A stretch of 53,664 nucleotides of DNA from a virus (taxonomy: Duplodnaviria > Caudoviricetes): positions 1-53,664 of IMG/VR virus record IMGVR_UViG_3300020043_005951. One strand, written 5' to 3'. The notes beneath the pieces were generated by a model, which worked only from the letters and a program-made list of their open reading frames with translations, was not told the DNA's origin and did no database searches. Within the stretch, counting starts at the first letter, position 1, and each line of letters starts with the position of its first letter. Below, one piece after another: positions 1,508 through 35,936 of the stretch. The position numbers were made by a program, and so were the translations under genes.

Positions 1508-1610
1508 TTGGGTTTTGAATTACCTATGATCGGCATAGGCTACCGATAGGCGAATTGCCTAGTTCCCAGTGTGGTTGCGACCCCACATACGCTTTTCTGG
1601 GAGGGGAGGG

Positions 1611-2040: not shown

Positions 2041-2243
2041 CATCCATTTTTAAATTATTCGGAAATATTTCCGATAGTCCCAATTTACCCCAATTGGGTG
2101 CGACAATTTGCCATACAGTATTTCTTATATCGCGAAGCAAATTGTGTGCCAACTAGGGGTGGTTTGTGAATAGATTCACAAAGTAGGTGGCGACTAGGGG
2201 ACGATTGGTAGTTGCTTGCAATGGTGCCAACAAAAGTAGCGGC

Positions 2244-2306
2244 TGCCATTCTGGCAACTGCCAATTCGACATGTCATTCTGGCATGTCATTCTGGCATGT
2301 CATTTT
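2244..2306. repeat. tandem 13-mer CATGTCATTCTGG (about 3 copies) plus palindrome TGCCA-TTC-TGGCA
   Basis: Read directly: units at 2270, 2283 and 2296 (partial), palindrome at 2244-2256. Confidence 0.85.
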
Positions 2307-2338
2307 GTCATACTACCTTTGGGGGATTCGATGGACCT

Positions 2339-2411
2339 ACCAATGGTGGTACTACTTCAGGGGGATAGTCGAACCACCAATGGTGGTACTACTTCCGGGG
2401 GGACTACTTCA
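2339..2411. repeat. direct repeats ACCAATGGTGGTACTACTTC x2 plus a third ACTACTTC
   Basis: Read directly. Each ACTACTTC is followed by a G-run. Confidence 0.85.
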
Positions 2412-2675
2412 GAGGGGGAGTCAACCCCACCTAACGAGGGGGAGCTGATTAAGAAGATTTGGATACAAAAGTTGCTCTATGCGAGGCAGGGAAATTTGAT
2501 CTTTTGTCCAAGAATTTTGATATATGCGACCCAGGGAAATTTGTTCTTTTTGGTGCATTTTGGAAAGTTAGTTAGAAGTGAGAGAGATAGAAGGGAGAGA
2601 GTGTAATTAAGAGAGAAAAACAAGCAAGCTAGAAACTGCAAGATGGGGAAGATTTTGTTTCTAACTTGCTTGTGG

Positions 2676-2936
2676 TTAAGCCGCGTACACACCCCACACG
2701 TTCATTTCCTGGGGGAAGGTAGGGAAGGGGATGGGTAAGTCAGATGTGTGTGAATCGATTGCTTCGAATACATCTTCAGCAGTTACCATACTGTCGTTGA
2801 TAGCAATAGTAGGGGTGTCTGGGTTGCCAGTAGTAAGTTGGGCATCAAATTTACCAGATGCTTTGTGGACTACACAGATAACCTGTGGAGTGTGAAAGGG
2901 AGTCAGGAGTTCAATTGCTTCTGCTAGATTCATCAT
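2676..2936 (-). CDS. hypothetical protein
   Basis: 86-aa ORF with AAAGGA RBS-like sequence upstream. Confidence 0.55.
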   Translation of the reverse strand: MMNLAEAIELLTPFHTPQVICVVHKASGKFDAQLTTGNPDTPTIAINDSMVTAEDVFEAIDSHTSDLPIPFPTFPQEMNVWGVYAA

Positions 2937-3104: not shown

Positions 3105-3788
3105 TTAGGAAGTTGGTGGAGTAGTGGGAATGGTCATTGGTAAGGTTGGGTTGTTTAGTTTGCGACGTTGGTATTGTTGGTTGGATATCCATTTGACGAT
3201 TTTGGCTTGGAGTTGGTGCTTGCGACCCCACCGCACTAATTCACTTTCTGGGGGGAGAGGGATTGGGGAGTAAGGGGTGATTATGGAGTAGTTAGTGAAA
3301 GGAGTGGAAGGAAGTAGTTGAGTGTAACAGCCTGGATGTGGAAGGGATGAGAAGTGAGAGTATGTGTAATGCTGATAGGATTGTGCATGAGTAGGAGGAA
3401 GGTGATTAAGGATGATTGTGCAGAGGAAGTTGGGTCCACATAGATCACGATACATTTGATGAATTGTGATTTGGTTGTTGGGATATTTGTGTCTGGAAGT
3501 ACATGAGTGGATTGTACCTATTCCAACATAGAAGGGCAATAGGTCGTCGGTTGTGTGCCATAGGTAGAGGCAGAAGTTGGGTTGTTGGTTGGATTGGTCA
3601 AAGAAATTGGATAGCTGGTTAGGCAGGTAGTTGGCATAGGAGTTTAGGGGTTTGTTGAAGGATAGGTAAGGTGCGGTGAATGGGCAATCTTGAGGAGCTA
3701 GTGGGATTGAGTAGCTTGGGTCGTTTGCGAGGTTTGGGTCAATTGTTTGAATGTTGTGTACTAATGGGGGTTCTGGTTTTCGTGTCAT
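3105..3788 (-). CDS. hypothetical protein with degenerate GIY-YIG-like motif
   Basis: FCLYLWH...LPFYVGIG resembles the YxYxH...PFYVGKG GIY-YIG signature. Low-complexity P/N/Q-rich flanks. Confidence 0.4.
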   Translation of the reverse strand: MTRKPEPPLVHNIQTIDPNLANDPSYSIPLAPQDCPFTAPYLSFNKPLNSYANYLPNQLSNFFDQSNQQPNFCLYLWHTTDDLLPFYVGIGTIHSCTSRHKYPNNQITIHQMYRDLCGPNFLCTIILNHLPPTHAQSYQHYTYSHFSSLPHPGCYTQLLPSTPFTNYSIITPYSPIPLPPESELVRWGRKHQLQAKIVKWISNQQYQRRKLNNPTLPMTIPTTPPTS

Positions 3789-3854
3789 TGGATTAAGTTT
3801 TTGCTATATGCGAGGGGTGGAAATTTGATCTTTTGTAGAGAAAACGTGTTTGGG

Positions 3855-5691: not shown

Positions 5692-6196
5692 CTTTGAGAG
5701 GGAACCAAGGTTTGAATAGCTTAGTATTTACTAGATTGTGAGCATACCAACAGCTTACAAAATAGTCCATATAGCGTTCAAACACAATAGGAAAGTAGAG
5801 GGTTATTTCTTCCCAGTCTTCTTGACAATTACAACCAAATTCAGGTATCATAGTATGAACCCAAATCTGATAGTCACGTTCAGCAGTCTTAGAACACCAG
5901 TCAGGAAGATAATAAGAATGCAATGCGTCCCATGCTTTATGAGATTGTTCCAATTTTTCACGTGAGATAGGAAGCTGTTCAGTTTGCATACATTCAAACA
6001 AGTCTGGATCAGGTTCTAATCCTGCTTTCATTTGAGCAGTTCTTGCCATGCTGCACGTCACCCCATTGATTCTCTGGGGGAGGGAGGGATGACTGCTGCA
6101 TGCTAGGCATTGTTCAGCTATTGGAGAGCATCTTAGCTTGGCTAGCTCAGAGGCGACTACGCACTCTCCTTGGAATAGATATTTGCAATCTGACAT
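5645..6196 (-). CDS. Erv1/Alr-like FAD sulfhydryl oxidase with Cys-rich N-terminus
   Basis: W..LH...C.C...W..HN.VN..L.KP (AWDALHS, GCNCQEDW, CWYAHNLVNTKLFKP). The active site is CxC rather than CxxC. Confidence 0.65.
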   Translation of the reverse strand: MSDCKYLFQGECVVASELAKLRCSPIAEQCLACSSHPSLPQRINGVTCSMARTAQMKAGLEPDPDLFECMQTEQLPISREKLEQSHKAWDALHSYYLPDWCSKTAERDYQIWVHTMIPEFGCNCQEDWEEITLYFPIVFERYMDYFVSCWYAHNLVNTKLFKPWFPLKDALKKYRDMHAQVQN

Positions 6197-8299: not shown

Positions 8300-8966
8300 T
8301 TTCGAAGCGTTCTTCAGGTTTTAACCCTGACCACGACCAAAATTGTTTACATGGCCAAGGTTTTATGTCCTCAGTGAAGTAGTAGGGATGGTTCTGTTGG
8401 TAAGCAAATGCACCGATGCAGTTGAATTCTGAGAATGCTCTGTTCGTAACCGTTTGTGCATGATTGTGCAACTGAGGATACGCTTCAGATAATGCACGTA
8501 CAGTTTCCGTTCTGTGCATAATCGGAAATGTTCTCATAAACTCATGAGTAGGAACAAATCCCAATGCCTTCTCGACCACCCCCTGCCAGTGACCTCCCTG
8601 GGGAGGAAGGAGATAGTAGGGAGTCATGTACAAGATTGGTTGTTTGACTGAGAACATATCTTCAAGATTGAAGTAGTCTGTGTAGATGCAGTCTGAGTCA
8701 GTATAAAGAATATGTTCAGTTTCAACATACTTATAAGCATCTAGCTTATCAAGCTGCTGACCAATGTAGCCGTCAATACTATTGTACTGTCTGCTGTAGA
8801 TGATCGAATCAAAGAAAGCAAATGCTTCTTGAGGAGGTACTTCACCTTCAGGAACTACAAGCATAGAAGTGGCGTATCCTGTGAGATACTTTTGCATACT
8901 TGCAATAGCATAGGTTAGCCATTTGTAGTCGGGACCATATGAACGAACAAATAGGGTTATGCTCAT
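8271..8966 (-). CDS. putative glycosyltransferase (GT-A / DUF6492-like)
   Basis: GY..QQ..KL, DSD metal-binding motif, FSEF. Sits within a glycan-modification cluster. Confidence 0.6.
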   Translation of the reverse strand: MSITLFVRSYGPDYKWLTYAIASMQKYLTGYATSMLVVPEGEVPPQEAFAFFDSIIYSRQYNSIDGYIGQQLDKLDAYKYVETEHILYTDSDCIYTDYFNLEDMFSVKQPILYMTPYYLLPPQGGHWQGVVEKALGFVPTHEFMRTFPIMHRTETVRALSEAYPQLHNHAQTVTNRAFSEFNCIGAFAYQQNHPYYFTEDIKPWPCKQFWSWSGLKPEERFEIESIINATR

Positions 8967-9613
8967 GGTTTTAGTTTTCTGTTTGAGAGGTATCGTCTAT
9001 CAGTTAAATCAAGCAATCCATTGGAAATAGATTCAACTGATTGATTGAATTCAAATTCAAGTAGCTTTAGACAACGTCGATGGTCTGTTACTTCCCATTG
9101 CTCCTTATGATCCTCATGGAAGATACCATCAGTGATAGTTTGGATTCGATAGCCAACTTTGTGAAGTTTCCAAACCAACCAATAATCCCAACCAGGAATA
9201 CCAAGTGCCCAAAGTGGGTTCCGCAAGTGTTGACGCATTTCTGGGAGGAGGAGGAAGATATCTATCCCATACTTGTTGACTTGTTTGTGATTGGCGTTGT
9301 AATCAGTACGTAATCCGATCTTGAGTACATTTGATTCAGGTTGCCAGGATGTTGGATTGAATGTACGAATCTCAATGTCTGAATTAACAAGCAAAGTTGG
9401 TTCAGATACGTTAATCAAGTCAACAATGGAAGGAGTCCTCTTACTCCACCAAGTATTAGGTTGAACCCAAGTGATACAAGGAGTGATCTGTAGTGCATAG
9501 TTTTCACCATAACACTGTATTGCTTCAATATCAAAGTCGTGTTGTTTCCATGTTTCAAGAGCGTTCAGTTGAGAGGGTAGTCGAGAGGGTGAGAAGGATG
9601 TAATGAGTTTCAT
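8963..9613 (-). CDS. putative glycosyltransferase-like protein
   Basis: LLVNSDI, GIDIF, LG.PGWDYW and H..H...W, plus gene context. Confidence 0.5.
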   Translation of the reverse strand: MKLITSFSPSRLPSQLNALETWKQHDFDIEAIQCYGENYALQITPCITWVQPNTWWSKRTPSIVDLINVSEPTLLVNSDIEIRTFNPTSWQPESNVLKIGLRTDYNANHKQVNKYGIDIFLLLPEMRQHLRNPLWALGIPGWDYWLVWKLHKVGYRIQTITDGIFHEDHKEQWEVTDHRRCLKLLEFEFNQSVESISNGLLDLTDRRYLSNRKLKP

Positions 9614-9924
9614 TAGTAAGGGTACTTTTTGTTATAATGGTTTTGTCGTTCCGTACAACCACAGTCGATTCCTAATTTAGTTGCCCATTCTTTGAATCTT
9701 TCACCTCCGTACTTTGCAAATTGTCTTTGAAGTGTATCACCAATTCCAATGTCAGATGGTATACGAAGCCTACGTACTATACGTACCCACCGTGGCGTCT
9801 TCTCTATTTTCTGGGGGGAAGGTATGCCTGAGAGGGTGGTGGGCTTCTTACATCTAGGGCAGGTGATTGTGGTTGCTAGATTACTATGGATAGGCCAGTT
9901 ACAGTTAGAGCATTGTTGCATCAT
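9613..9924 (-). CDS. Zn-ribbon / CGC-motif phage protein
   Basis: N-terminal CxxC...CxxC. C-terminal GIGDT...DCGCTERQ..YN motif recurrent in phage proteins. Confidence 0.65.
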   Translation of the reverse strand: MMQQCSNCNWPIHSNLATTITCPRCKKPTTLSGIPSPQKIEKTPRWVRIVRRLRIPSDIGIGDTLQRQFAKYGGERFKEWATKLGIDCGCTERQNHYNKKYPY

Positions 9925-10804: not shown

Positions 10805-11656
10805 TTAACTACTTATGACAGAAGCAGGGCAGTTGTCAACGTCAACAAAATAACGCGTACCGATCTTCTTGAGTTGTATTAAAGCATCACCAGTAATTCC
10901 CATCATTACCATGTTATAAATGGTTTCAGTAGCACCTGTTAGAGCACCAAATTCATCGACTAGATCGCATACTTCAGATGGAAATGTGTAAGGTGCTGTA
11001 TCCGTTGTCATTGCAGCAATACCACCAGATGGAGTTACTGCGAGTTTTGCATCTCCACCTGATCCAGTTCCTCCAATTGCTCCGGCTACAACTAGGTAGT
11101 AATCGAATTCCGACTCAAGTGTTACATCAGATATGGATTCTACATACCATTGTACGTAAAAGTAATTAAGAACTTGAATACGTCCAATATTATTTGTAAT
11201 TAAATCGGTATTATCTGGCCCAAGAAAGTTGAAGAAATCACCTTGGTAAGGAGCATCGCTAAGTAGAAATGTTTTTGTTTTGAGTAATGATACTCCACTG
11301 ACTAAGGCACGTGCCTGTGCTCCTATTTCTCCTGGGAGGGGGTCAAGGAGGATGAATATATCGTACTCGCCGCCGAAGATTGCTAGTGGGTCGGTTGTTT
11401 CCCAGACAGTCTCGTTGGTTATGTTATCTAATCTGTCGCTTAGAAGAAGAGAGGGATCACCTATCGCGACTACTGTAAATTGGTCTTTTGCTACTGCTTC
11501 ATGATTCGATACCCAAATCCAAGACTGTTGGGAAAGGTTGTGTATTGCAGGTATGCCTGTTAGTTTTTTATTTACTGCTTTGTCTACCTTGTTGTACCAC
11601 GCAGCTGTGTATACATCGAGGAAAGGATCACCAGGTTTAGCCATAACAGGAACCAA
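10805..11656 (-). CDS. putative minor tail protein
   Basis: Position after tape measure and distal tail. Acidic, beta-rich composition. Confidence 0.5.
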   Translation of the reverse strand: MVPVMAKPGDPFLDVYTAAWYNKVDKAVNKKLTGIPAIHNLSQQSWIWVSNHEAVAKDQFTVVAIGDPSLLLSDRLDNITNETVWETTDPLAIFGGEYDIFILLDPLPGEIGAQARALVSGVSLLKTKTFLLSDAPYQGDFFNFLGPDNTDLITNNIGRIQVLNYFYVQWYVESISDVTLESEFDYYLVVAGAIGGTGSGGDAKLAVTPSGGIAAMTTDTAPYTFPSEVCDLVDEFGALTGATETIYNMVMMGITGDALIQLKKIGTRYFVDVDNCPASVISS

Positions 11657-11856: not shown

Positions 11857-12732
11857 TTAAATGCCCAGTAGGTCAAAGTTGCCTGGTTCTCTAACTTGTA
11901 ATATTTGACGGAAGACTGGGTGAAGTAGTTGAACACTGTTTGAGATTCTTGGATCGTATATGTAGTCAACAATATCATGACCGAGCTTAGTCAATGATGG
12001 AAAAGGTGGATCAGCAACACCAGATATATTTGGTCTGTAAATGAAGTTAAACGTCACAGGAACATACTTAAATGCTTCTGAATTAGCATCACAATAATCA
12101 AACAGTACACTTCCCGCAGGAAATCCGTAGAAGGTGGCATTGTTGTATGTTTTGGACAGCGAAGCATACGTTAACATTACTGATGTTGTCCAAATACTTG
12201 GATCAAAATAACCGGTAATGTTGAAAGACAAACCAGGATCAGTTATGTCCATACCATCAACGTTTGTACCGTTCTTCCCAATCCCTCTGTATGTTTCTGG
12301 GGGGATGAGAGAGGAGCCTGATTGTGCTACTATAGAACGCTGTGAGATTGCTTGACTGATATGAACGGTTTCACCATTAGTGCTGAATCCAAACTGGATG
12401 TGAGTTGAGTTCTGTTCTTTCTCAGGAAGTGAGTAAGTAAGTGTTACTTTCCAACCACCATCTACTTGTTCTACCCCGGATATATCATTGATGAATAACT
12501 CTACATCACCTAGGCTAGTTGGAAATACTCTTGAGTCAGGGAAGTTGTCATAAATGTATTTCAGTATGTTGACGTCATCATTAGGCGTGAAGAAGTCACC
12601 ATACAAAGTATCCCAAGCAACCTGATCTGAGATAGCATCAGGTTCACAGATGTAATACTCAAATGTTTGAGTAGTTCCATCCCGTGTCTGAGAGAAGCGT
12701 CTACTTTCGTAGCCTATTTCGAAGTAACTCAT
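11857..12732 (-). CDS. putative minor tail protein (distal tail/hub)
   Basis: 291-aa ORF shortly after tape measure. N..TFYGFPAGSVLF motif typical of such tail proteins. Confidence 0.55.
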   Translation of the reverse strand: MSYFEIGYESRRFSQTRDGTTQTFEYYICEPDAISDQVAWDTLYGDFFTPNDDVNILKYIYDNFPDSRVFPTSLGDVELFINDISGVEQVDGGWKVTLTYSLPEKEQNSTHIQFGFSTNGETVHISQAISQRSIVAQSGSSLIPPETYRGIGKNGTNVDGMDITDPGLSFNITGYFDPSIWTTSVMLTYASLSKTYNNATFYGFPAGSVLFDYCDANSEAFKYVPVTFNFIYRPNISGVADPPFPSLTKLGHDIVDYIYDPRISNSVQLLHPVFRQILQVREPGNFDLLGI

Positions 12733-12952: not shown

Positions 12953-15900
12953 TATTTCAGACCCATTGTTACAGGTAATCCATGTTGTAGGATTTGATCC
13001 AAGTTGCCAGTTGTCTGACTGGTGTTGTCTTGAATCTGTTCCAAAGCTGTGAGACTCTTTTGTTCAACCGATTGACCTGATGCAAATTTAAGTAAGTTAC
13101 GTCTTGTCTGTTGGAAACTACCAGTTACGGAAGAAACAAGATCGGAAAGTTGAGCACGTTGAGGGGCTGCAATTGTTCCTCTAGCTTGCTTACGTAGTTC
13201 TCTTACTTGATCTTTTAACAGACCAGCCCGCTGAGCGTTATCAATTATCTGCTTCAAGGTACGTTGACGTTTAAGAAACTCTTGCGGTGATTCAACAGTC
13301 TTTTGTACACCTAAAGCAGCAAATTGACCAGGAGGTTGGATACCTAGTGCTTGTCCTTTGAATACCGTATCCTTCCGAAGTCTTGCAGTATCCAAACGTA
13401 AATCTTTCAACTGGCTTTGAATGAACGGTATCTGTGCTTTGGCAACAGCAGCAGGATCAGCTTTTGCAGCAGCAGTAGTGAATACAGCTTTAGCATTTTT
13501 ACCTATTGCAGAAAGATTGTCTTTGTTGAATATCTTTCCAAATACGGCATCAATGTTATTATTCGTACCAGTACCACCAAATAAAGCAGCAAGAGGATTC
13601 TTTGTTGGTACTGGAATTCCATTGAATGCACCAATGAATTGACCTAAGTTACTGAATGGTCCTTTTGGTGATTTGCTAAGTCGATCTGCTGTTTCATTTG
13701 CAAAACCCAACAACATCTGTTGTACTTGGGATTCAGTGTAGCTAAGATTTAGTGCTTTGATCTTTGCAGGCTCTAAAGCAGGAGCGGTGAAGATATTGGT
13801 GAGTCCGTCTTTGAATGTCTTCAAGAACTTATCTAACTTGTTTGTGAAACCATCAAAGGATTGATTAGCTCTAGTAACCTTCAAGTCAAACTGATAGAAG
13901 TTCTCAGCGATCTCTTCGAACTGTCCGGTGCTTGGATTGAATCGTAAGAACTTTTGTCCAGCTAGCTTTTCCATTGCTTGTGTAGGAGCAAAGTCATTTG
14001 ATTTATTACTTGGTAGTACACCTAAGAAAGCAATCATTGCAATACGTAGATCACGCATTGTTTGAGCTATTGCATTGTAGATCAACTTCATAGTATCATT
14101 AACTGATGAAGCCATACCTACAATAGCAAGGCCGATACCTTCAAAGATACCTTTCATGTCGATTGCTTCGAAGACTCCACGAATCATTTCACCAATGCCA
14201 CCACCAAGCCCACCACCTTGAAATAGATTAGCAAGATTGCTTAATGTATTTCCTAATGATGCTCCAAATGTATTAGCAAACAATTTACCCAATTCAGCAG
14301 TTGAACTGATTAGCTTGACTATGAAGTCGTAAGCAGGAGCAATTGCTAGTGTCAAATGATTCCATGCTTCACTCAGTTTGTTACCAACGATATCTACAAT
14401 AGCAGATAAAGCGGTACTTAGTTGTTGAAAGCCAAGATCGCCGTCACCCGCAAGAAGTGTTTTCATACTCTTGCCGATTAAGGAAAATGCAGGGCCAACT
14501 GCTGTAGCAATACTACCAATTGCTCCAAATGCTGATCTGATACCTGCACCAAGACGTTCAAAGGCTTCTCGAATAAATTTGATCTTAGGACCAAAGATAA
14601 GCAAGAAGGTAAGAATGTTTCCCCAACCAGACAGCGTAGTAAGAGTCTTGAAAGAAATTGCAGCAAGTGCTCCAAATGCTTTGGTGAGTGACCAAACTGC
14701 TTTTGCTCCACTAAGGAAGATTCGAACAAAGTCGATCTTCCATAGGGTTCGGAATCCAAATACAACTAGCTTTAGTCCACCAGACCAAAGACGAGCAAGA
14801 GCAGTTCCAGTTTTAGCAATTACAGCAGTAGTTGATGTTTTTGCAAATGTAGCTCCAAATTGGGTAGCTGATTTGAAACGTCCAATACGAGCTAACTTAG
14901 CCTGTAAAGCTGCTTGTTTAACACCACCAGCTAAAACAGCTTTGTTTACTAGATTTTGACCTCTAGCAATTCTAGCTACTTCTAGTTTGTTACGTCTAGC
15001 GGCTAAAGCATTTAGAGCTTTTTTGTTACTTGCTACCTCCGCAGTCAGAACATCGCGTTCAATAACTAATGCTGATCGGTCTACGTAATTAGTTATGGTT
15101 GCTAATTTCTTATCAACTGCAGCTATTTGCTTTGTAAGAGAAACTTTTCGAGCTAATGCTGCATTTTGCTTGTTGCCGATACTTACAAGTGCTTTTGATT
15201 CTGGCAGCTTCGGTGTAACAGAATCTGTATTTAATTGTATTAAAGCAATCTGGGTACGTCGAAATGCACGTTGTTGTGCGAGTAGTCGTTTGTTAGGAGC
15301 TAACGCTTTACTAATCGCAGCAGCCATTCTGGAATAGACAGAAACAGCTTTGGGTCCAAGAGCTTTCAGATTCGTATACAGACTCTTTGTTGCAGCTACC
15401 AAATAATTAGTTGCGGCTGTTGCTGCACCTAATCCGCTTTTGGCTGTTGCTCCTGCTTGGGTTGCCCCTACTCGACCCAGGAAGCTGGTTGGTTTGATTT
15501 TTCTAGCGTTCCGACCCCGCCCCCCGACTAACTGGGGGGTGAGGAGGGCTGCTGATAGTCCTCTGTCAAAACTGCGTGCTGACTTACGGATTCTATCCAT
15601 AAGTACAGCTACGTTGGTTAGTTGTTGGGTAAGTAATCCACCAATCAGCCTACCTGTTCCACGAATACCTCCAGCAAGTAATCCAATCACTCCTGCTAGT
15701 TTGGCTGCTGCGAATGATGCTACGAGTAGTCCTGCTCCTAACCCTAGTATGGCTACTGGGCTGAGAATCAATCCAGTCACTAAGGTCTGGTTTGCTTTGG
15801 TTAATTGCTCAAGTGCTAGGGATAGGGCAGGGACTAAATCGAGAGTAGGGATAATTGCGTCAGCTAGTAACTTACCCCAACGTAATGTCAGACCTTCAAT

Positions 15901-16905
15901 AGCGGAAGAAGCACGACGAATAGCACCACCAAAACCACTGTCCATCTTGACAGCAGCTTTACGTGCTTCATCACCTGCTGCTGCGATCTGCTTCTGCAAG
16001 TCGATGATCTTCTTGATATCATCTAATGCAGTAATAGCACGACCACCACGAATATTGAAAATACTTTGTAGAACAGCAGTACGCTTCAAGTTTCCCAGTT
16101 TGCTGATCTTGTCGTACAACTGCTCTAAGAACTTGATGAATCCAGGACCGTCGATGTTCTCAGGAAGAACAAGTCCTAGTTTAGCAAGCTGCTTACCTTT
16201 TGATGCAAGCTGCAATAGAGCTGTATTAAGAGACGTACCAGCTTTGGTTCCTTTGAGAGAACGCTCAGCAAGTTGAGTGATAAGAGCAAGAGTAGTAGGC
16301 AAGTCGATGTTGAGATTGCGTACTGTTCCTAATACTTCTTTGATGGATTCTTTGAGGTCAAGAACATCAAGAGTACCTAGACGAGCAGCAGCAATAAATT
16401 GGCTGGCTACTTCTGTTGCTTTATCTGCTTCAAGAGAGAATGATCGAAGCGTATTAGCAAGAATAGCACCTGATGATGCCAAATCAATTTGAGCACCACG
16501 GGCAAGATCAAGAGTTGGTTGAAGCAGCTTTGTTACTTGTGCAGCATTAAAGCCTGCCTGAGCAAGTACAGTTGCAGCATCAGCTACCTGAGAAGCAGTA
16601 AAAGAAGTAGTACGACCCAACTGTCGGATAGTCTTTTCTACTCCTGCTAGTTCTGCTTCTGTAGCTACTAATTTGGTAGATAGAAATAGCAGCTTATCTT
16701 CAAAGTCTTCGAATTGCTTGGCAAGTGCAGTAAGTCCCAAAGAACCCAAGAAGCCACCAGAAAACATTTCAAAGCCAAGACGATTAACCTTGGCTGAGAA
16801 TTTGTTTAGATTGCTACCAATTCTTTTTAAGGCAGCGTCAACCGAGTCCTGTACTTGGACTACAATGATTGACTTACCTGCAATAATTCCTGCTCTTGGA
16901 CTCAT
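12952..16905 (-). CDS. tail tape measure protein (TP901 family)
   Basis: 1317 aa, Ala/Gly/Leu-rich. LG.TT.FTASQVADA...LAQAGF and KGT.AGT.L motifs, with hydrophobic segments. Confidence 0.93.
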   Translation of the reverse strand: MSPRAGIIAGKSIIVVQVQDSVDAALKRIGSNLNKFSAKVNRLGFEMFSGGFLGSLGLTALAKQFEDFEDKLLFLSTKLVATEAELAGVEKTIRQLGRTTSFTASQVADAATVLAQAGFNAAQVTKLLQPTLDLARGAQIDLASSGAILANTLRSFSLEADKATEVASQFIAAARLGTLDVLDLKESIKEVLGTVRNLNIDLPTTLALITQLAERSLKGTKAGTSLNTALLQLASKGKQLAKLGLVLPENIDGPGFIKFLEQLYDKISKLGNLKRTAVLQSIFNIRGGRAITALDDIKKIIDLQKQIAAAGDEARKAAVKMDSGFGGAIRRASSAIEGLTLRWGKLLADAIIPTLDLVPALSLALEQLTKANQTLVTGLILSPVAILGLGAGLLVASFAAAKLAGVIGLLAGGIRGTGRLIGGLLTQQLTNVAVLMDRIRKSARSFDRGLSAALLTPQLVGGRGRNARKIKPTSFLGRVGATQAGATAKSGLGAATAATNYLVAATKSLYTNLKALGPKAVSVYSRMAAAISKALAPNKRLLAQQRAFRRTQIALIQLNTDSVTPKLPESKALVSIGNKQNAALARKVSLTKQIAAVDKKLATITNYVDRSALVIERDVLTAEVASNKKALNALAARRNKLEVARIARGQNLVNKAVLAGGVKQAALQAKLARIGRFKSATQFGATFAKTSTTAVIAKTGTALARLWSGGLKLVVFGFRTLWKIDFVRIFLSGAKAVWSLTKAFGALAAISFKTLTTLSGWGNILTFLLIFGPKIKFIREAFERLGAGIRSAFGAIGSIATAVGPAFSLIGKSMKTLLAGDGDLGFQQLSTALSAIVDIVGNKLSEAWNHLTLAIAPAYDFIVKLISSTAELGKLFANTFGASLGNTLSNLANLFQGGGLGGGIGEMIRGVFEAIDMKGIFEGIGLAIVGMASSVNDTMKLIYNAIAQTMRDLRIAMIAFLGVLPSNKSNDFAPTQAMEKLAGQKFLRFNPSTGQFEEIAENFYQFDLKVTRANQSFDGFTNKLDKFLKTFKDGLTNIFTAPALEPAKIKALNLSYTESQVQQMLLGFANETADRLSKSPKGPFSNLGQFIGAFNGIPVPTKNPLAALFGGTGTNNNIDAVFGKIFNKDNLSAIGKNAKAVFTTAAAKADPAAVAKAQIPFIQSQLKDLRLDTARLRKDTVFKGQALGIQPPGQFAALGVQKTVESPQEFLKRQRTLKQIIDNAQRAGLLKDQVRELRKQARGTIAAPQRAQLSDLVSSVTGSFQQTRRNLLKFASGQSVEQKSLTALEQIQDNTSQTTGNLDQILQHGLPVTMGLK

Positions 16906-17529: not shown

Positions 17530-17757
17530 CTAAGGAGGGGGGAGTAGTTCGGGTTTGAAAGCTCGGATTGTCAGCAGCACTTGGTCAACATTAACTGAGA
17601 CAAACTTGGGAAGTTCCATAAGAAAGCGATCAGCCAACTCTGGTCCCAAAGTGTCTATCAATACTTTTCGAGGTACAAATTCGAGTACGTTAGTTGATCG
17701 AACTAGTGCTTCGACCAACCCCGCCGCGTCTGTACTTTCCTGGGGGGAAGGGAGCAT
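17530..17757 (-). CDS. hypothetical protein
   Basis: 75-aa ORF with GAGG RBS, tightly packed. Confidence 0.55.
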   Translation of the reverse strand: MLPSPQESTDAAGLVEALVRSTNVLEFVPRKVLIDTLGPELADRFLMELPKFVSVNVDQVLLTIRAFKPELLPPP

Positions 17758-19295: not shown

Positions 19296-19774
19296 CGGTA
19301 GCCTGCTGTGATAGGAACCATGTACAATCTATTATCAAGAGCCAATTCATCCGGGACTTGACTCTCAATAGATACCAGTTTCACACTACCAATCGGTGTT
19401 CGTATCAAGAAAAGTTCAAGATCTTCTCGAAGATTACTTAATAAAGACCACTCGGCTTTGGGAGTGACACTATGGACTGACGTTGTATCAAATCTATAGC
19501 TGAAAGGAACGCAGATAGCTACTGTGACATACTTAATTACAGACACTTGAACTGTTTCGTTTCGTCCAGCAGTCCGTAATCTAGTTAAGTCGAACTCATT
19601 AAAGCCGGGAATCACATAGACTCCGGCATCCGTGTTATCAGTATTACTCAAAGGATCAAGTTCATCGACCAATATAGGAAGGTCGTCGGGGAGAACCAAC
19701 CCCCCGCCCCAATTTTCTGGGAGGGAGGTAGTGATGGCTTCGACTATGCTAGCTGCGATCTCGGCTAAGTACAT
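19286..19774 (-). CDS. putative tail terminator
   Basis: Size and position in the head-tail joining block. Confidence 0.5.
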   Translation of the reverse strand: MYLAEIAASIVEAITTSLPENWGGGLVLPDDLPILVDELDPLSNTDNTDAGVYVIPGFNEFDLTRLRTAGRNETVQVSVIKYVTVAICVPFSYRFDTTSVHSVTPKAEWSLLSNLREDLELFLIRTPIGSVKLVSIESQVPDELALDNRLYMVPITAGYRCK

Positions 19775-20926: not shown

Positions 20927-22972
20927 TTAGGTCGTTGGTCGTGCTCGTACAATTGTTTGTGGTTCACGGTCATTGATTTCAACGTCAATGTAACCGCGAA
21001 CACCGAAGCCAAGCATATCGACTGGAGCATCAATTGTTTCGATGGTTGGTTGTTCAACACCGTCTAACCAGTTGATTGCAAATGGAGCGTACTTCGGATC
21101 ACTTGGCCACAGGAACCATGCGTCTCGTTTTGCACCAGCAGCAATGGTCTTGTTTGCCAAGTTTGGATAACGCTTGACTGCAAACTTCTTGTACCAGTAG
21201 TTGTCACGTACTTGTTTGGTATCAGAAGCTGTGTTGGAGACGAATTCCTTCTGATTAACCAAATCCCAAGCAGTACGCTCAAGTGCTGCTGTTGCAACAA
21301 CAATCGTCCAGTTATCACCAATTTGGTCGATCCAGTTGATATCGCCCTTGGTGACGTTGCGTTCTGAAGCCAAGTCATAGGCCAAAGCTAAACTGGTTTC
21401 ATTCAATGATGCGGAACCACCGCTGATATCATTACCAGAACCGACCCCACCAGTAACTGTATCAGCAGCATAAGCGGAGAAGAATGCTCCGTTTGCTTGC
21501 CACATACGACGGACCAGCTTGATGTCAGGAACCATCTTGGAACCTTCAGCCATCAGCTTCAACAGTTCTTTGATCGCTCCGAAGTCATCGTTCTTGGCGA
21601 TGGTTCGGTTAATCATGAGCATTTGAGCTTTGGTGTCCAAGCTAGTTTCGTAGGACGTTTCATCTCCGAAGTGAGTATGCTTGATCTTGCCGTCTTGGTC
21701 AAGACCTTCCCATGCTTCACCACCACTTGGTCGGAATCGCAAAGTCTTCTTGAAGTCAGACTGGCTGGTCTTGTAGCACATTTCCTTGGCAAAGAATCCG
21801 CCGATCAACCACGCTTCGTCCATAGTGATCTTGGTGATTCGTGCAAACAGATTCGGCATGTCGAACGAACTAAAGCCGGTGCTGTTTTGCAGACGATCAA
21901 TACCAACATGAGCCTTATTGTATCGACCCAAGTAGTTCATCAACCGACCAATGTCGCTGTGTCCGGTGAAACTATTTTCACCAGTACGTCGTGCTGATTC
22001 AAGGAGGAATTCCTTTACACCGATGTTTGGTGTATTGCAGACACGATCACGAATCTCTTTCCCATAGACTCGTTCAAGCGTCTTTTGAGGATCTTGACAG
22101 CAAGCGTTAAGGATTCGTGCTTCAAACAGCAATGAATCCTTAGCTCCAGCCTTACCCAACTTGATCGGAGCAGGAAGTTGATTTTCCAGACGACGTAGTT
22201 TGACGGCATTGAGAATGCGTGCTTTTGACCAGTTCAGATCAAGACCTTTGGTAATGACTTCTTTATGGTCAGGAAACTTGTTGAGCAAGCGGAGTGCCGT
22301 CCCCAGTGTTACTTTCTGGGGGGTAGGGGAGAGCTTCTTCTTGGGCATGTTCTTGATTCTTTCTTCTGGATTCTCCAGGTCGAGTGGCTTCTTTGTCTTG
22401 ATACGCGTTGGACGCTCCAACGGTACTGGTTTGGAAGAGTTCTTGATTGTGAGAAGTTCTTTCTTATCCAGCTTGCTATTGAGCAGACGCATGGACGTGT
22501 TGCTGTCTCGACCTTCTTCAGTGATCGTTACTTCATCGACAAGCGTATTGCGGATGACGTAGGTAGGCTTCTTGAAGGTCTTTCCGTTTGCAATGGTTCC
22601 TTCCGGAAAGTAATCAATCTTGATCTTCCGTGCATCCATTCCCAGAGACATTTCGTAGGGGAATTGATTTTCAGCAGCGTTCTTGATCTTCTTGCTGATT
22701 CGATTCTCTACTGAAAGTGTACCAACACCAGAGACTTCCTTCCCGGAATTGTTAATCTCTGTAGTGTGGCCAATAGCTGTTCGATGATTGTACATCATCT
22801 TCAGCTTTTGGTTTTTGATCTTGAGCGTGTCAAGATCGTATACTGCTTGTTCATCGAACCCGTGATCACTAAGATCAACTGGCCCCCCGCTGTAGCCTAC
22901 GAACTCCAGTTTTGCTGGGTCTTTGCTGTTGCGGATCGTTTTGGTTTTCACCTGGAGTCTGGTTAGAGGCAC
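20927..22972 (-). CDS. prohead protease-scaffold-major capsid fusion (Mu gpT-like capsid)
   Basis: N-terminus has Y.GG, H....IGH, SLG and EV....G.D protease motifs, then a basic linker. C-terminus has DFK...R, INR..I.NDD.GA and WLDG...PTIE. Confidence 0.85.
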   Translation of the reverse strand: MPLTRLQVKTKTIRNSKDPAKLEFVGYSGGPVDLSDHGFDEQAVYDLDTLKIKNQKLKMMYNHRTAIGHTTEINNSGKEVSGVGTLSVENRISKKIKNAAENQFPYEMSLGMDARKIKIDYFPEGTIANGKTFKKPTYVIRNTLVDEVTITEEGRDSNTSMRLLNSKLDKKELLTIKNSSKPVPLERPTRIKTKKPLDLENPEERIKNMPKKKLSPTPQKVTLGTALRLLNKFPDHKEVITKGLDLNWSKARILNAVKLRRLENQLPAPIKLGKAGAKDSLLFEARILNACCQDPQKTLERVYGKEIRDRVCNTPNIGVKEFLLESARRTGENSFTGHSDIGRLMNYLGRYNKAHVGIDRLQNSTGFSSFDMPNLFARITKITMDEAWLIGGFFAKEMCYKTSQSDFKKTLRFRPSGGEAWEGLDQDGKIKHTHFGDETSYETSLDTKAQMLMINRTIAKNDDFGAIKELLKLMAEGSKMVPDIKLVRRMWQANGAFFSAYAADTVTGGVGSGNDISGGSASLNETSLALAYDLASERNVTKGDINWIDQIGDNWTIVVATAALERTAWDLVNQKEFVSNTASDTKQVRDNYWYKKFAVKRYPNLANKTIAAGAKRDAWFLWPSDPKYAPFAINWLDGVEQPTIETIDAPVDMLGFGVRGYIDVEINDREPQTIVRARPTT

Positions 22973-24311
22973 TGGTTTTGCTCCTAGAAGCTAAAAGAAG
23001 TTTGAAGTATTGTTCGGGTGTAATACCGAGAAGTTTGCATTCCTTCTTGATTTCTCGTCTTGCAGTCAGTCCATCTTGACTGTAAATACGAGTAAGAGTA
23101 GAAGCACCACTTAATAGATCGGCTTCCCTTGCATTGGCTCTTTTCACAGGATCGGGGTGTTCAAAGAGAACATTGTAATGAAATATGATAGGAGGTCTAG
23201 GATATTTCATTGCTGCTCTTGGAAGGTATCCAGGCCACATAGTAGCCATATTATACCACATCCAAAAGATTTTACGAATAGGTTTTTCGTAGTCAAATCT
23301 ATCAATCTTAACAGCATAAGCCCAGGGTTGTAAGTCGATATGGGCTGTTGCCATATTCGAATCGCTGCTGTCTGATAACGCCAAGATGGTTGGCATATCA
23401 ATACAACGGGCTGCTGTTCCTACCATCAAGTCAACAAACTTACTACGATCCTCTGCTACTTGAGCGAAGTTGAGGCCCGTCAACTTAGCTCCTGGGGGGA
23501 GGGTGGGGATGAATCCTGGTTCGTACTCAAATTTACCACGTAGATCGTTTGTGAACGGTGTGTAGTAAGCAGGATCGAGTTCAAGTGCCATTGGTATTGA
23601 CGTTTGATTCTCAGCAGATTTGAGAATGTTGGTCATATACCTACGAATACTTGGATAAGTGTTGAACGCACTTGCACATTCAGGCCAATGCTTGTGAACA
23701 CGTTTTCGAGTAAAAACAATAATGTCTTCTTCTTTGTAACGTGTTGGTTCTAACTTACCTTCTTCTTGAATCCAAACAGCCTTGATATCATTGTTGGGCC
23801 AGTATTCGATTCCTTCATACACATCAGGATTGTATCCAGGAGATTGAAAGTATTCCGCACCAATGACTTGAAACCCAAGTTTAATTGGATGATTGGTTTT
23901 CATCTTATACGGAATAGCTACTGCAATGCCTGAACGTGCTGCTGTACGACGTAGATCACGAATAGCCGATCCAACTTCGTTTTCAACACCCCATTCTTGA
24001 AAGCGATCCTCAACTGCATCACATATTGAATCTTCTTCCAGAAGAACAATTGGAATCGGAATCGATCCACAACAATGATTCGAGAGAGTGTTGAGCACAC
24101 CCGTGTAGTAAGGATTTTGTTCGTCTTCTTCCAAAGAACAATTGATTAGTGTTCTTCGGATTACTGGCATGTTCAATCGGTTGATGTTCCGATTGATTAC
24201 AAATGGGTCTGATCCAGCATTGTATCTTGAGTTTAAGATACGCTCACCAAAACGTCTCATATTTTCAATGATTTGTTTTGGATGCCATAGAGATAACTTA
24301 TCTTTGAACAC
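22875..24311 (-). CDS. portal protein (lambda family)
   Basis: 478 aa. N.YY.G, EGIE, L.PG, D.S..N...A and H.DP.K..NA..L motifs, upstream of protease/capsid. Confidence 0.85.
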   Translation of the reverse strand: MFKDKLSLWHPKQIIENMRRFGERILNSRYNAGSDPFVINRNINRLNMPVIRRTLINCSLEEDEQNPYYTGVLNTLSNHCCGSIPIPIVLLEEDSICDAVEDRFQEWGVENEVGSAIRDLRRTAARSGIAVAIPYKMKTNHPIKLGFQVIGAEYFQSPGYNPDVYEGIEYWPNNDIKAVWIQEEGKLEPTRYKEEDIIVFTRKRVHKHWPECASAFNTYPSIRRYMTNILKSAENQTSIPMALELDPAYYTPFTNDLRGKFEYEPGFIPTLPPGAKLTGLNFAQVAEDRSKFVDLMVGTAARCIDMPTILALSDSSDSNMATAHIDLQPWAYAVKIDRFDYEKPIRKIFWMWYNMATMWPGYLPRAAMKYPRPPIIFHYNVLFEHPDPVKRANAREADLLSGASTLTRIYSQDGLTARREIKKECKLLGITPEQYFKLLLASRSKTSASNQTPGENQNDPQQQRPSKTGVRRLQRGAS

Positions 24312-24341
24312 CGCCCACCGCGTCTTTCTGGGGAGGAAGGG

Positions 24342-27832: not shown

Positions 27833-27859
27833 TTTCTGTTCTTTCTGGGGGGAGGGTAC

Positions 27860-30123: not shown

Positions 30124-30915
30124 TTATGCTGCTGGTAGTGGAATGGGTGGAGTGTCTGGGTAGATCATGCCTTCTGGAGCGTAGATCACGTGGTTGTTAC
30201 CACTGAGTCGTACTTGTTGGTCAAGTGCTGATGGTGTGTTTTCGTTGCAACCATCACCGTCCCACTTGCCCCAAGAGTTGACTCGAATGTAGTTACCATT
30301 CTTCTTCAACCAAAGGCAAGTTGAGTGACCACCACCTGCCTCACGACCTGTGTAATTGTCACAGACTGTTTGTGAAACTTCATTGTTCCAAGTGATTCCG
30401 TCTTGAACAGGCAGACCAAGATCAAGTGCTTCGCGGATTAGTCCTGGGTCTTTGGTTGGTTTAGCAGCAACAAGTTTGAATGCGTAGTTAGGTTTGGGAG
30501 TAGGCTCTACGTTGTAGTATCGTGAAGGATACTGCCATTCTTTTGCTAAACACAAACCGTGGATTGTTGCGACTTTCTGACCACCGGATAAGGTTGATCC
30601 GAAATCACCACGAATGCCGTCGTATCTCTGGGAGAGGTAGTAGGCCGCTGCTGCACTAAAGTCTAGAATTTGTCCTGTCATCAAGAAGTAGCAGATTTGG
30701 AACATACGTGCCAAAGCGAAGCCTTGACACGCTCCTTGATTGGCTTGATCCAGCAATGTAATGATTGCCATTGGATCAGTGTTAGTATTGAAAGCAGGAA
30801 AGTTATCTGCTGCTGCCTTCAACATTAAAACAGGTTCCATTCCATTGGCTTGCAATAAAGCATTGTTTTCTTGCTCGATTGCATATCCTAGACTGTAAGT
30901 TGGTAATTGGGTCAT
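30124..30915 (-). CDS. papain-like (C1) cysteine peptidase
   Basis: DQ..QGACQGFA (catalytic Cys), GGHS (His), VNSWG.W (Asn). Confidence 0.88.
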   Translation of the reverse strand: MTQLPTYSLGYAIEQENNALLQANGMEPVLMLKAAADNFPAFNTNTDPMAIITLLDQANQGACQGFALARMFQICYFLMTGQILDFSAAAAYYLSQRYDGIRGDFGSTLSGGQKVATIHGLCLAKEWQYPSRYYNVEPTPKPNYAFKLVAAKPTKDPGLIREALDLGLPVQDGITWNNEVSQTVCDNYTGREAGGGHSTCLWLKKNGNYIRVNSWGKWDGDGCNENTPSALDQQVRLSGNNHVIYAPEGMIYPDTPPIPLPAA

Positions 30916-33320: not shown

Positions 33321-33326
33321 TGTTAG

Positions 33327-33575
33327 TTACCTTTGACAATTGTGACAGGGGCGTGAACAGGTTACCTTCCCGCACCGATTGCATTTCCTGGGGGGAGGGG
33401 CTGTATCATAGGGGATCATGTTGCGTAGTACGGAAGTAGGTATCAGTTCGAGTATCTGATTGGTTGTTGGATGCTTTATTTCAATCAGATGGTTGTTGGT
33501 ATTGTACCAAATGATGAAGTCTTCGTCAGCGTTGGTTTCCCAACCATCAAGATACTCGAATGATCGGAGTCTCAT
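33327..33575 (-). CDS. hypothetical protein
   Basis: 82 aa with C-terminal CxxC motifs and AAGGA RBS. Confidence 0.55.
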   Translation of the reverse strand: MRLRSFEYLDGWETNADEDFIIWYNTNNHLIEIKHPTTNQILELIPTSVLRNMIPYDTAPPPRKCNRCGKVTCSRPCHNCQR

Positions 33576-33598
33576 AGCGTTTTCCTTATTCGTGAGAG

Positions 33599-33748: not shown

Positions 33749-33752
33749 GTTT

Positions 33753-35936
33753 TTATGCTCTTTGAGATTTGAAGTAGTCGTTTATGTCGATTGACTTGGT
33801 GACACGTTTTGATTGGATAGTGAATGATACTCGACGCATTGCTAATGCCCCTAGACAACCAACGAAGTTATCTAGCAGTTCATTGTCACCACCACCAGGA
33901 CGAGGTTCCCATAGAGTTACCTCACGTCCTGTCTTTGGATCAACGTCTTTATAGGGTTGCTCTGCTGTCAGATGCTTGCCTACAACTACGTGTTGATTGG
34001 GTCGTTCTTCTTTGTATAACGATGCTGCTCCTTCTGTGTCTGCTTGTTTTGCGAAACATATATGTGCTTGGGTTTTCATGTAATTAACATCATTAGTTAA
34101 TCGCATAAGGGTTCTATCATCAGTAGGTACTAGTACGCTGTGATGATACTTAATACAGGCATCTGAATACTTCATCTGTGCAATGGTTTTATCCTTTGCC
34201 ATGAAGCGTTGTCCTTGAGCAGGATGAGCATTAGGAACACCTGAATCACGAATTGCTTTGTATACCCAATCAGCATGATAGATTGAGTCGCAAAGAATTA
34301 AGTGGTTGGCGAATTCAACTCCATCTTCACGTTTGTATCGACGATTCGAAAGATTGATTACCAAGTCCTTGACCGCCAGGTACGTTACATCTTCTGGGAG
34401 AAGGGAGTGGCCTACCTTCGATTCGTAGTACGTTTGTAATGTATGACTTGTTTTTCCTTTCTCAGGGAATACTGGGAATGAAGGGAAGGTGTCGTAGTCG
34501 ATGATCTGTGGTTGGAGTGTATCAGGTGAAGATACTGTCATCCAAGTTAGGTATGGTTTGTTTACGTCAATGTGTGTTACAAGATGACGGTCTTTGACTT
34601 GAAGTTGATAACGAGGTCTGCTGTGTTGGTTATTGATGATCTGATCTTGGGTGCAATAGGTAATTGACCCATCAACAGCACTATGGGCTACATTACATTG
34701 ACATTCAGATTCGAAGACGTCCATACCTTCAAGAATCATAATGTTATAAGCGTGTTGTACTGCACTAATTTCAGTAGGTATCTTTTCACGCCATTTGTAA
34801 CACCATTCCCAAGCTGCATTAGCTCCCCTATCCATACGTTCACGATTATTCTTGTAGAACTCTAAAGCGTGTTTAGCGGCTTCAAGTTTACTACCAGGAA
34901 TAGTCTTGTCAAAATCAGTAAGGATTTGCTGATAAGTACCAAACCACATTTCTTCTGCTTCAGCATCAGCACGATCAATCAGCATCTTATAAATAACATG
35001 CTGCCAAGGCTCATTGAATAAGAAGTGATGGGTTACATCACCAGGAGCAATCGGAGTACCATTCATCATAATGCTGATGCCGGAGTCATGACCACCGGCA
35101 AGCATAATTGACTTCTTAACTAGATTGACAATCTTACGTGCTGTATTAGGATTCTCTGCTTCTTCATCGGTTTGAATGTCATCAAGAATTACGTGAGTTG
35201 GACGTTGACGAGTACCGGCAAATTCACCTGCTTCAATTGTATGGTAGATACCACGAACATTCTTACGTGCTCGAATGTCGATGATAGCACCAGAGGAAGG
35301 TTCTCCATCAATATAAGGGAAGACAATGAAACCTTGATTGTAGTAAATGTAGGTGTCTTTACCTTGATAGGTTTGGGACAGTGACTTACGAGGTTCCTTT
35401 TCAGTATGACGAAAACAGGCAATGGTTGCAGGATACAACTGAAACAGGCGATCATTAGAAAACAATTCCGTCATAACAGACGTAATGATTTCTTCTGCCT
35501 TCTCTGTATTACTTGCAACAATCACAAGGTATTTGATGAATCCTTGAAGGACACCCATGATTCCTTCATTGGTGGACCTAGATGTTTTTCCAAACGCTCT
35601 AGGTTCACACTTGAGAATATGAGTACCTTGTTGGACGAAGAACTGGGAATGCCTTACTGCATCTAATTGAGATTCAGATAATGGCTTAATCCCTGTAGAC
35701 ATTGGAAATATCTCAGGGTGGATAAGAGTATAATCTTCGATGTACCGCTGCCGTGCCTCTAGATTCTCTGGGGAGGGAGGAGGTACTAGACCTACTTCAT
35801 TGAACTTGTTCTTGATCTTGGTCTTAACTTTACGTTGTCGTTCTACTTCTTTAAGACGCAGATACTCAGCGTAACTGTCCACTGATGTTGTTGGATCATC
35901 AGGGACGAATTCTCCCCAGAAACTTTCTTTGGCCAT
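33753..35936 (-). CDS. terminase large subunit
   Basis: Walker A PRAFGKTS, Walker B VILDDIQTD, motif III NGT, C-terminal RNase H-like nuclease (HIDV...DNELLD). Confidence 0.88.
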   Translation of the reverse strand: MAKESFWGEFVPDDPTTSVDSYAEYLRLKEVERQRKVKTKIKNKFNEVGLVPPPSPENLEARQRYIEDYTLIHPEIFPMSTGIKPLSESQLDAVRHSQFFVQQGTHILKCEPRAFGKTSRSTNEGIMGVLQGFIKYLVIVASNTEKAEEIITSVMTELFSNDRLFQLYPATIACFRHTEKEPRKSLSQTYQGKDTYIYYNQGFIVFPYIDGEPSSGAIIDIRARKNVRGIYHTIEAGEFAGTRQRPTHVILDDIQTDEEAENPNTARKIVNLVKKSIMLAGGHDSGISIMMNGTPIAPGDVTHHFLFNEPWQHVIYKMLIDRADAEAEEMWFGTYQQILTDFDKTIPGSKLEAAKHALEFYKNNRERMDRGANAAWEWCYKWREKIPTEISAVQHAYNIMILEGMDVFESECQCNVAHSAVDGSITYCTQDQIINNQHSRPRYQLQVKDRHLVTHIDVNKPYLTWMTVSSPDTLQPQIIDYDTFPSFPVFPEKGKTSHTLQTYYESKVGHSLLPEDVTYLAVKDLVINLSNRRYKREDGVEFANHLILCDSIYHADWVYKAIRDSGVPNAHPAQGQRFMAKDKTIAQMKYSDACIKYHHSVLVPTDDRTLMRLTNDVNYMKTQAHICFAKQADTEGAASLYKEERPNQHVVVGKHLTAEQPYKDVDPKTGREVTLWEPRPGGGDNELLDNFVGCLGALAMRRVSFTIQSKRVTKSIDINDYFKSQRA

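Follow-up and report, generated by a model that had tools for sequence, protein, structure and literature searches.

The window analyzed here is a whole virus record of the IMG/VR database (IMGVR_UViG_3300020043_005951; Duplodnaviria; Caudoviricetes), 53,664 bases in length. All of its long open reading frames (ORFs) lie on the minus strand, and minus-strand genes hold 91% of its bases according to a simple gene call. These genes encode the capsid, the portal and a PKD/Ig-domain structural protein, the large terminase, a UvrD-like helicase, a PD-(D/E)XK nuclease, a Sak4-like annealing protein and a MazG-like enzyme, in addition to a primase, a family A DNA polymerase (PolA) and a ligase (Table 1). 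CheckV estimated the completeness of the record at 36%, yet structural and replication modules are both present and related genomes measure 50–56 kb; it may be almost complete. The + (non-coding) strand carries a recurrent short motif with the consensus TTYCTGGGG(R)GG, and the base composition of this strand changes abruptly across the motif. Here we describe the motif and this composition step, and consider which process could have produced them.

The window contains 22 strict and seven variant copies of the motif, all on the + strand. The strict copies include the positions named in a preliminary description of this DNA (15532, 8598 and ~50650), which proved to be CTGGGG copies. The seven variants read TTCTGGGAGG and the family-wide pattern is YCTGGGRDR. 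CTGGGG occurred 22 times on the + strand, and CCCCAG occurred there seven times in unrelated contexts. Column counts around the C of the core showed that the conserved part extends from about −21 to +15 and that conservation is gone beyond about ±25 nucleotides (nt). Its elements are, in order, a C-rich block from −21 to −10, A.TTT, CTGGGG and a purine run that reaches ~+15, with no C at positions +6 to +11. The C-rich block (ACCCCGCC-like, for example at 15511–15522) could form a hairpin with the G-run. It is limited to the lineage of the window and absent in relatives, and the core common to the clade is ttTY-CTGGGG-n-g. In the CTGGGG copies at 15532 and 43623, A replaces the pyrimidine before the core.

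Relatives were not found by single-protein search; searches based on an alignment of PolA homologues succeeded and yielded three related virus records and 80 metagenome loci. There were 22 PolA-clade loci of at least 5 kb, from which eight near-duplicates (L143, L150, L152, L153, L154, L160, L164 and L180) and the short locus L173, which has CTGGGG on neither strand, were dropped, and 13 were kept. Note that L159 is not fully independent, as 22–24% of its 16-mers are common with G002. The resulting set comprised 17 genomes (the window and 16 relatives), 401 kb and 305 strict motif copies.

Across the 17 genomes, one strand carried 91–99% of the coding sequence and an inverted gene block was seen in none. 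The motif was located only or nearly only on the non-coding strand in every clade genome with CTGGGG, as indicated by strand counts of 27 vs 1 for TCCTGGG and of 36 vs 2, 32 vs 1, 18 vs 0 and 19 vs 2 for CTGGGG. Further, the core was kept across phages of 33–48% G+C. The strand bias of CTGGGG was absent in distant PolA phages (22–25% identity), which served as a negative control, and a 14-mer motif scan of viral contigs gave scattered single matches only. Identity of the motif with KOPS (GGGNAGGG) was rejected, as it does not fit the relatives, which have GGGGTGG in its place. In two relatives, L129 (~10672) and L130 (~10624; both in reverse-complement coordinates), a motif copy occupies the same place in the polymerase gene, over a conserved G-P-P; the window polymerase has no motif copy at that place.

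Within genes, the motif encodes P-Q in one frame and P-P-E in another, and there are intergenic copies as well. With copies in at least two reading frames as well as outside genes, the motif is a nucleic-acid signal and not a protein motif. Its positions along genes were uniform, and 27 of the 305 copies (8.9%) were intergenic, compared with 7.6% for random positions. The spacing of the motif was more regular than random in nearly all genomes (coefficient of variation 0.44–0.7 vs ~0.93; p 0.0003 for the window), with mean spacings of 0.4–2.4 kb.

To describe the composition around the motif, we used the keto skew, (G+T)−(A+C), of the + strand. At 50–500 nt from the motif, the keto skew of the window was +0.051 before the motif and +0.138 after it; it increased at 18 of the 22 strict copies (circular-shift test, z 4.07, p 0.0016). 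A fell from 0.282 before the motif to 0.250 after it, and G and T increased. A refined set of 27 sites gave a similar result (up at 24, z 4.2). The step was largest at third codon positions (+0.146, z 3.2), followed by first (+0.086) and second positions (+0.030, z 1.1), and amounted to +0.147 (z 2.5) at 4-fold degenerate sites. The third-position skew was ~0.00 at 150–450 nt before the motif, +0.26 at 30–150 nt and ~+0.17 at 150–450 nt after it, and near the genome mean of +0.088 beyond.

The preliminary description had noted, by eye, that the + strand is A-rich just before a motif and G/T-rich just after it. This polarity was as predicted, both in the window and among the relatives described below, and its three examples fared differently. 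In the UvrD-like gene the contrast holds (A 0.299 at 50160–50640 and 0.212 at 50660–50900), and at 8598 the keto skew rose as claimed whereas A did not fall (Table 1). The example in the tape-measure gene, at 15532, was reversed: over 30–450 nt, the keto skew was +0.157 before the site and −0.033 after it, and A rose from 0.226 to 0.267. This site fails the family-wide pattern. The overall G/T excess of the + strand that had been claimed was also present (+0.080 overall, +0.088 at position 3 and +0.133 at position 2); since the genes are all on one strand, this genome-wide excess is inseparable from coding effects.

The motif-specific composition step is real (pooled z ~8). A step of the same sign was present in 16 of the 17 genomes, the only negative one being L142, which has seven motifs. 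The pooled step, 30–150 nt after minus before, was +0.076 ± 0.009 and was positive at 204 of 303 motifs; the third-position step of the relatives was +0.083 (z 7.5). A generic effect of G-rich words was ruled out, because 29 other orderings of the six letters of the motif, taken away from motifs, gave steps that averaged 0.000 (largest +0.088). Other HGGGG sites gave +0.010 ± 0.011, and CCCCAG on the + strand gave +0.005 ± 0.027. Further, the uniform positions of the motif along genes ruled out a confounding effect of gene position. Spill-over of the G-run of the motif was likewise ruled out, as conservation ends at ~±25 nt, the step was measured from 30–50 nt outward, and GGG and GGGG are depleted in the flank.

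Table 1. Motif copies and other features of the window. The step is the keto skew after minus before the site, 30–450 nt.
Feature	Position	Strand	Remarks
Variant TTCTGGGAGG	1597..1608	+	pattern YCTGGGRDR
Non-coding region with short tandem and palindromic repeats, candidate replication origin	2160..2640	.	putative function
CTGGGG copy	2709..2720	+	step +0.095
Motif copy	3248..3259	+	step +0.033
Motif copy	6074..6085	+	step +0.105
Motif copy named in the preliminary description	8598..8609	+	step +0.090; A 0.293 to 0.305, no fall
Variant CTGGGAGG	9241..9252	+	
Motif copy	9811..9822	+	step +0.067
Variant copy	11332..11343	+	
Motif copy	12297..12308	+	step +0.024
CTGGGG without T-rich 5' flank (AACTGGGG), in the tape-measure gene and within the stretch 14600..16300 of the preliminary description	15532..15543	+	step −0.190
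Motif copy	17740..17751	+	step +0.300
Variant copy	19717..19728	+	
Motif copy, capsid gene	22316..22327	+	step +0.138
Motif copy, portal gene	23492..23503	+	step +0.062
Motif copy, intergenic	24328..24339	+	step +0.029
Motif copy, intergenic	27845..27856	+	step +0.057
Variant copy	30628..30639	+	
Motif copy	33388..33399	+	step +0.152
Variant copy	34394..34405	+	
Motif copy, large terminase gene	35768..35779	+	step +0.062
DnaG-type primase (zinc ribbon and TOPRIM) fused to P-loop ATPase, 669 aa	35939..37948	-	PHROG 239 primase/helicase, E 5e-6
Motif copy, primase gene	37873..37884	+	step +0.229
Family A DNA polymerase with 3'-5' exonuclease	38677..40791	-	Pfam DNA_pol_A, E 1.1e-22
Motif copy	41150..41161	+	step +0.190
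CTGGGG without preceding pyrimidine (TACTGGGG)	43623..43634	+	step −0.038
Motif copy	45155..45166	+	step +0.062
Motif copy	47098..47109	+	step −0.014
ATP-dependent DNA ligase	48220..49305	-	Pfam, E 2e-14
Motif copy, ligase gene	48858..48869	+	step +0.062
Motif copy, UvrD-like gene, named in the preliminary description	50654..50665	+	step +0.105
Variant copy	52181..52192	+	
Motif copy	52948..52959	+	step +0.105

The preliminary description had explained the polarity by exposure. If the motifs fixed Okazaki starts on the lagging-strand template, DNA just to the right of each site would stay single-stranded longest and C>T and A>G changes would pile up there, giving a saw-tooth that resets at each motif. 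The idea has its basis in vertebrate mitochondrial DNA, in which skew is proportional to the time spent single-stranded and the gradient is roughly linear across the genome. The exposed strand of that DNA has a G+T excess that is strongest at 4-fold sites (PMC4182315). The polarity found here, and its concentration at third positions and 4-fold sites, agree with such a model. So do the presence of a DnaG-type primase, the regular and Okazaki-sized spacing of the motif, and origin-like repeats at the left end of the window.

The shape of the step in the 16 relatives was different from that of the mitochondrial gradient. The excess was +0.084 at 30–60 nt after the motif (z 6.4), +0.058 at 60–100 nt (z 5.2) and +0.022 at 100–150 nt (+0.115, +0.096 and +0.053, respectively, at third positions), and ~0 from 150 nt on. 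Slight deficits were present 500–1500 nt after the motif (z −3 to −5) and 30–100 nt before it (z ~−3). The slope across the interval between motifs, with z −5.0 in all data, dropped to z −0.3 when the first 200 nt were left out, and the third-position slope without the first 500 nt was even positive (z +3.5). In a joint regression, the local term after the motif was +0.056 (z 6.9) and the ramp +0.011 (z 1.1). The bump was ~200 nt wide at motif spacings of 370–820 nt, ~130 nt at 1.1–1.4 kb and ~250 nt at 1.8–1.9 kb; its width did not scale with motif spacing across genomes, which counts against exposure. The step was also no higher where the next motif lay farther away (rho +0.04 to +0.05, p 0.48–0.57), with a negative relation in 8 of 13 relatives.

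The window itself gave the exposure model more support. Its slope over the fractional interval was −0.098 (z −3.0), and z −2.4 without the first 200 nt. In the joint regression, the ramp had z 2.7–3.2 beside a local term of 150 nt. At the 22 strict sites, the third-position height increased with the length of the interval that follows (rho 0.70, p 0.001) and not with that of the preceding interval (rho 0.02). However, the bump of the window is ~450 nt wide, and the ramp could not be distinguished from a bump of this width (z 1.0–1.9 beside a 450-nt term); the slope without the first 15% of each interval was z −1.6, and rho fell to 0.30–0.47 with 27–29 sites, variants included. The composition change is a local step and not a ramp across the whole interval between motifs. 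The third-position profile around the motifs is not flat and contains the step, whereas the proposed saw-tooth is missing from the relatives and marginal in the window (z ~3). A mutational clock of fixed Okazaki fragments, as stated in the preliminary description, is not supported.

The bases that change also bear on exposure. Among the relatives, A decreased by 0.019 after the motif and G and T increased by 0.012 and 0.013 (z 4.5–7.8), and the sequence was G/T-rich on the 3' side only. A weaker zone, A-rich and G-poor, precedes the motif: at 150–450 nt before it, A was raised by 0.016–0.024 and G lowered by 0.011–0.013. At third positions 30–150 nt after the motif, the changes were A −0.032, G +0.028, C −0.010 and T +0.014, and the purine content was unchanged (−0.004, z −0.7), as it would be if transitions alone were involved. 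At 4-fold sites, in contrast, the shift was from A to T and not from A to G (A −0.026, T +0.027, G +0.006; purines −0.020, z −2.4). The dinucleotides TG (z 7.8) and GT (z 7.4) increased in the flank and TT changed little (z 1.5); AA (z −10.2), AAA (z −9.0) and TTTT decreased. The flank has the appearance of a TG/GT-rich tract in which A-runs are avoided. The A-to-T shift is not predicted by a uniform drift of C>T plus A>G, and the dinucleotide pattern is not either. We regard the exposure model as very unlikely.

A local footprint at lagging-strand fragment starts is reportedly found in eukaryotes as well: Reijns et al. 2015 are said to have observed raised substitution over tens of nt at the 5' ends of Okazaki fragments, at stochastic junctions set by chromatin. 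The step described here resembles that footprint in being local. Unlike it, the step is anchored to a sequence motif, and the minus strand would need to be the lagging-strand template.

Could the motif act in RNA or protein? In the mRNA it would appear as a C/A-rich, U-poor stretch followed by CCYCCCCCAGRAA. Such an element might serve in transcription, in RNA processing or, like a 'stoperator', as a repressor site; alternatively, Pro-rich linkers might produce it as a by-product. With genes on one strand, the orientation of the motif to transcription is as uniform as that to replication, and within genes it is read as P-P-E or P-Q. Second codon positions also shift slightly within 100 nt (z 3.4 and 2.5); the step at third positions is, however, about twice that at second positions. 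The stoperators of cluster A mycobacteriophages are dozens of asymmetric sites that lie in one orientation to transcription, mainly in short intergenic gaps. In contrast, 91% of the motif sites lie inside genes, at random positions, and the uniform placement along genes with an intergenic share as at random is unlike that of promoters, terminators or stoperators. Further, the use of at least two frames, the intergenic copies and a regular spacing independent of genes would be unexpected of an expression signal or a coding by-product. An RNA- or protein-level signal appears improbable, to about the same degree as exposure.

The motif is most likely where a strand-specific DNA transaction begins and from which it proceeds 3'-ward along the motif strand, and the step is most likely the 3' context or footprint of this transaction. 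As to its nature, our leading guess, a tentative one, is that the motifs are preferred priming sites for the DnaG/gp4-type primase of the phage itself; we place this ahead of Chi-like sites and of nick sites, because T7 primase prefers G/T-rich flanks. The phage encodes a primase with a zinc finger and a TOPRIM domain, fused to an ATPase, and the ORF is conserved in the clade. The protein of the window scores below the Pfam cut-offs by itself; among 25 aligned homologues, Toprim_2 was detected in 17, the DnaG CHC2 zinc finger in 12 and AAA in seven, and the family profile matched the DNA primase 2au3 (E 1.5e-5). Okazaki fragments of bacteria and phages are of the same size as the motif spacing of 0.4–2.4 kb. 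Further, the invariant CTG of the motif matches the template trinucleotide of Escherichia coli DnaG.

Biochemical data on related primases fit this guess. Flanks rich in G and T strengthen the binding of T7 primase to its sites by up to 10-fold, and its processivity drops when T is replaced with A (PMC6136900). This preference matches both the A-to-T shift at 4-fold sites and the enrichment of TG and GT. Primases of this family recognize short template words with cryptic 3' bases, and a plant homologue of gp4 recognizes a four-base word with two cryptic bases (PMC5737085). If the motifs are priming sites, the G/T-rich, A-poor flank would mainly be a selected sequence context that favours primase binding, as with T7 primase, and a local mutational footprint may add to it.

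Several points weigh against priming. The sites of gp4 and DnaG are 3–5 nt long and frequent, whereas the motif spans at least 10 nt and recurs every 0.4–2.4 kb. The flank effect of T7 primase was tested in vitro over ±16 nt; here the flank extends over 150–450 nt and on one side only. If the + strand were the lagging-strand template, replication would run head-on to every gene. The conserved purine content at third positions fits transition bias as well as selection. A strand bias of 100% at about one site per 2 kb has been published equally for Chi-rich phages and for nick sites (PMC12315714, PMC3517423).

A related scheme would assign the motifs to unidirectional (rolling-circle) replication, as designated lagging-strand priming sites that the zinc-finger primase of the phage reads on a strand that is always displaced, with the third-position skew of the window still recording exposure. 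Okazaki ends would then be encoded in the sequence, and the ramp of the window (z ~3) and the increase of its height with fragment length (rho 0.70) would be accounted for, while in the relatives nothing but the selected G/T-rich landing context would remain. We consider this quite unlikely.

A first alternative to priming is that the motifs are Chi-like sites in one orientation, read by a host enzyme of the RecBCD/AddAB type or by a helicase-nuclease of the phage, and that the flank is the context of recombination or repair synthesis. Such sites would protect or recombine linear or rolling-circle DNA. A strong excess and one-orientation bias of a G-rich word, as found here, are the properties of Chi, and the core CTGGGG(T/G)G resembles GCTGGTGG. 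E. coli phage LLS contains 23 Chi sites (one per 1.86 kb), and 20 of these point the same way; Pseudomonas aeruginosa phage MD8 has 32 vs 0, and P1 has one per 1.9 kb (PMC12315714). The arrays of these phages look like that of the window in density and orientation, with an octamer-sized G-rich sequence as the top over-represented word at about one per 2 kb. Chi activity is raised by 3' purines (PMC5041463), and positions +6 to +11 of the motif lack C. A UvrD-like helicase and a PD-(D/E)XK nuclease are encoded by the phage.

Unlike the window, Chi-rich phages are described as being without a recombination module of their own (PMC12315714), whereas a Sak4-like protein, a nuclease and a helicase are encoded here. 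The motif copies are evenly spaced, without a cluster at one end, and phages of very different G+C content in the clade share the word, which is easier to explain with a reader protein encoded by the phage. RecA-coated single strand forms 5' of Chi, but the G/T-rich tract is located 3' of the motif, and a 150-nt G/T-rich 3' tract is not reported in the parts of PMC12315714 and PMC5041463 consulted here. A close cultured relative or a prophage that could point to a host was not found: a phage-collection search yielded no DNA match and no PolA match at E 1e-20, with only 21–29% identity among PolA matches at E 1e-5, and a contig scan of genomes yielded one distant match in a Bacteroidales metagenome-assembled genome (24% identity) and no prophage. 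A Chi-like function ranks second and is unlikely.

The second alternative, somewhat less probable than Chi-like sites, is that the packaged DNA has localized single-strand nicks at the motifs, of the kind known from T5, phiKMV-like phages and tf, and that after infection a short patch of the nicked strand is rewritten by repair synthesis from the 3'-OH. In tf, 14 nicks occur on one strand, with a 9-nt consensus found only on that strand, and the nicks of phiKMV-like phages are on the non-coding strand (PMC3517423), to which the motif is likewise confined. The footprint sets in abruptly at the motif, extends 3'-ward along the motif strand and fades within 150–450 nt, like a patch of variable length, and the phage has both a ligase and PolA. 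The known nicked phages have ~4–14 sites per genome, and their nicks are implied to be repairable by ligase. The window differs from them in having 27–29 regularly spaced sites; the nicks of tf are unevenly spread. A nickase was not found among the ORFs scanned (~38 of 80), and we infer the sign that a footprint of polymerase errors would have. The passages of PMC3517423 consulted here do not mention a compositional footprint at nick sites.

One-strand motif arrays in phages are already known as Chi sites and as nick sites. Our literature search found no published one-sided compositional footprint of 150–450 nt tied to such an array. From sequence alone, the footprint makes a strand-specific DNA process of uncultured phages accessible to study, and shows both how far this process extends from the motif and in which direction. 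If the motifs are priming sites, they would be the first case of sequence-fixed Okazaki starts, and the primase and motif would form a simple biochemical system. If they are instead Chi-like sites or sites of nicks, the footprint would provide new evidence of how such sites affect neighbouring DNA.

The non-coding region near the left end (Table 1) looks like a replication origin or a regulatory region. It contains tandem repeats at 2270–2304, 2388–2419 and 2573–2601. Its sequence shows 2.7 copies of CATGTCATTCTGG, two copies of a unit in which a G-run follows the palindrome CCACCAATGGTGG, and two units of the form GGGAAATTTG...TTTT. If this region is an origin that fires rightward, 95% of the genome would have the + strand as its lagging-strand template. 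The GC skew of the + strand is extreme at 3001–4000 (+0.563), far above the remaining genome, in an interval that spans the ORF at 3105–3788. Near the right end, at 53496–53550, there is a 26-nt A/T-rich tandem repeat (2.1 copies, 93% match).

The replication module also includes a protein of the uracil-DNA glycosylase superfamily (46541–47275, E 2.7e-13). At 41573–42172 and 40788–41138, a domain resembling the N-terminal part of dATP/dGTP diphosphohydrolase (E 3.8e-8) adjoins the MazG-like pyrophosphatase (E 3e-37). Enzymes of these two kinds are companions of base-substituted phage genomes. A 2-aminoadenine (Z) genome, suggested by the diphosphohydrolase-like domain, was rejected because a PurZ-like gene (PF00709) was not found.

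Close strains, represented by contigs 90–99% identical to 33001–53000, were present in wastewater, activated-sludge and freshwater metagenomes from 14 studies. There were ~1,880 variable places among strains in four of the 24 sequencing runs, all of which are available as assembled contigs, over 20 kb. The differences on the + strand between A and G were about twice as frequent as those between C and T (192 and 196 vs 83 and 108 in run X1).

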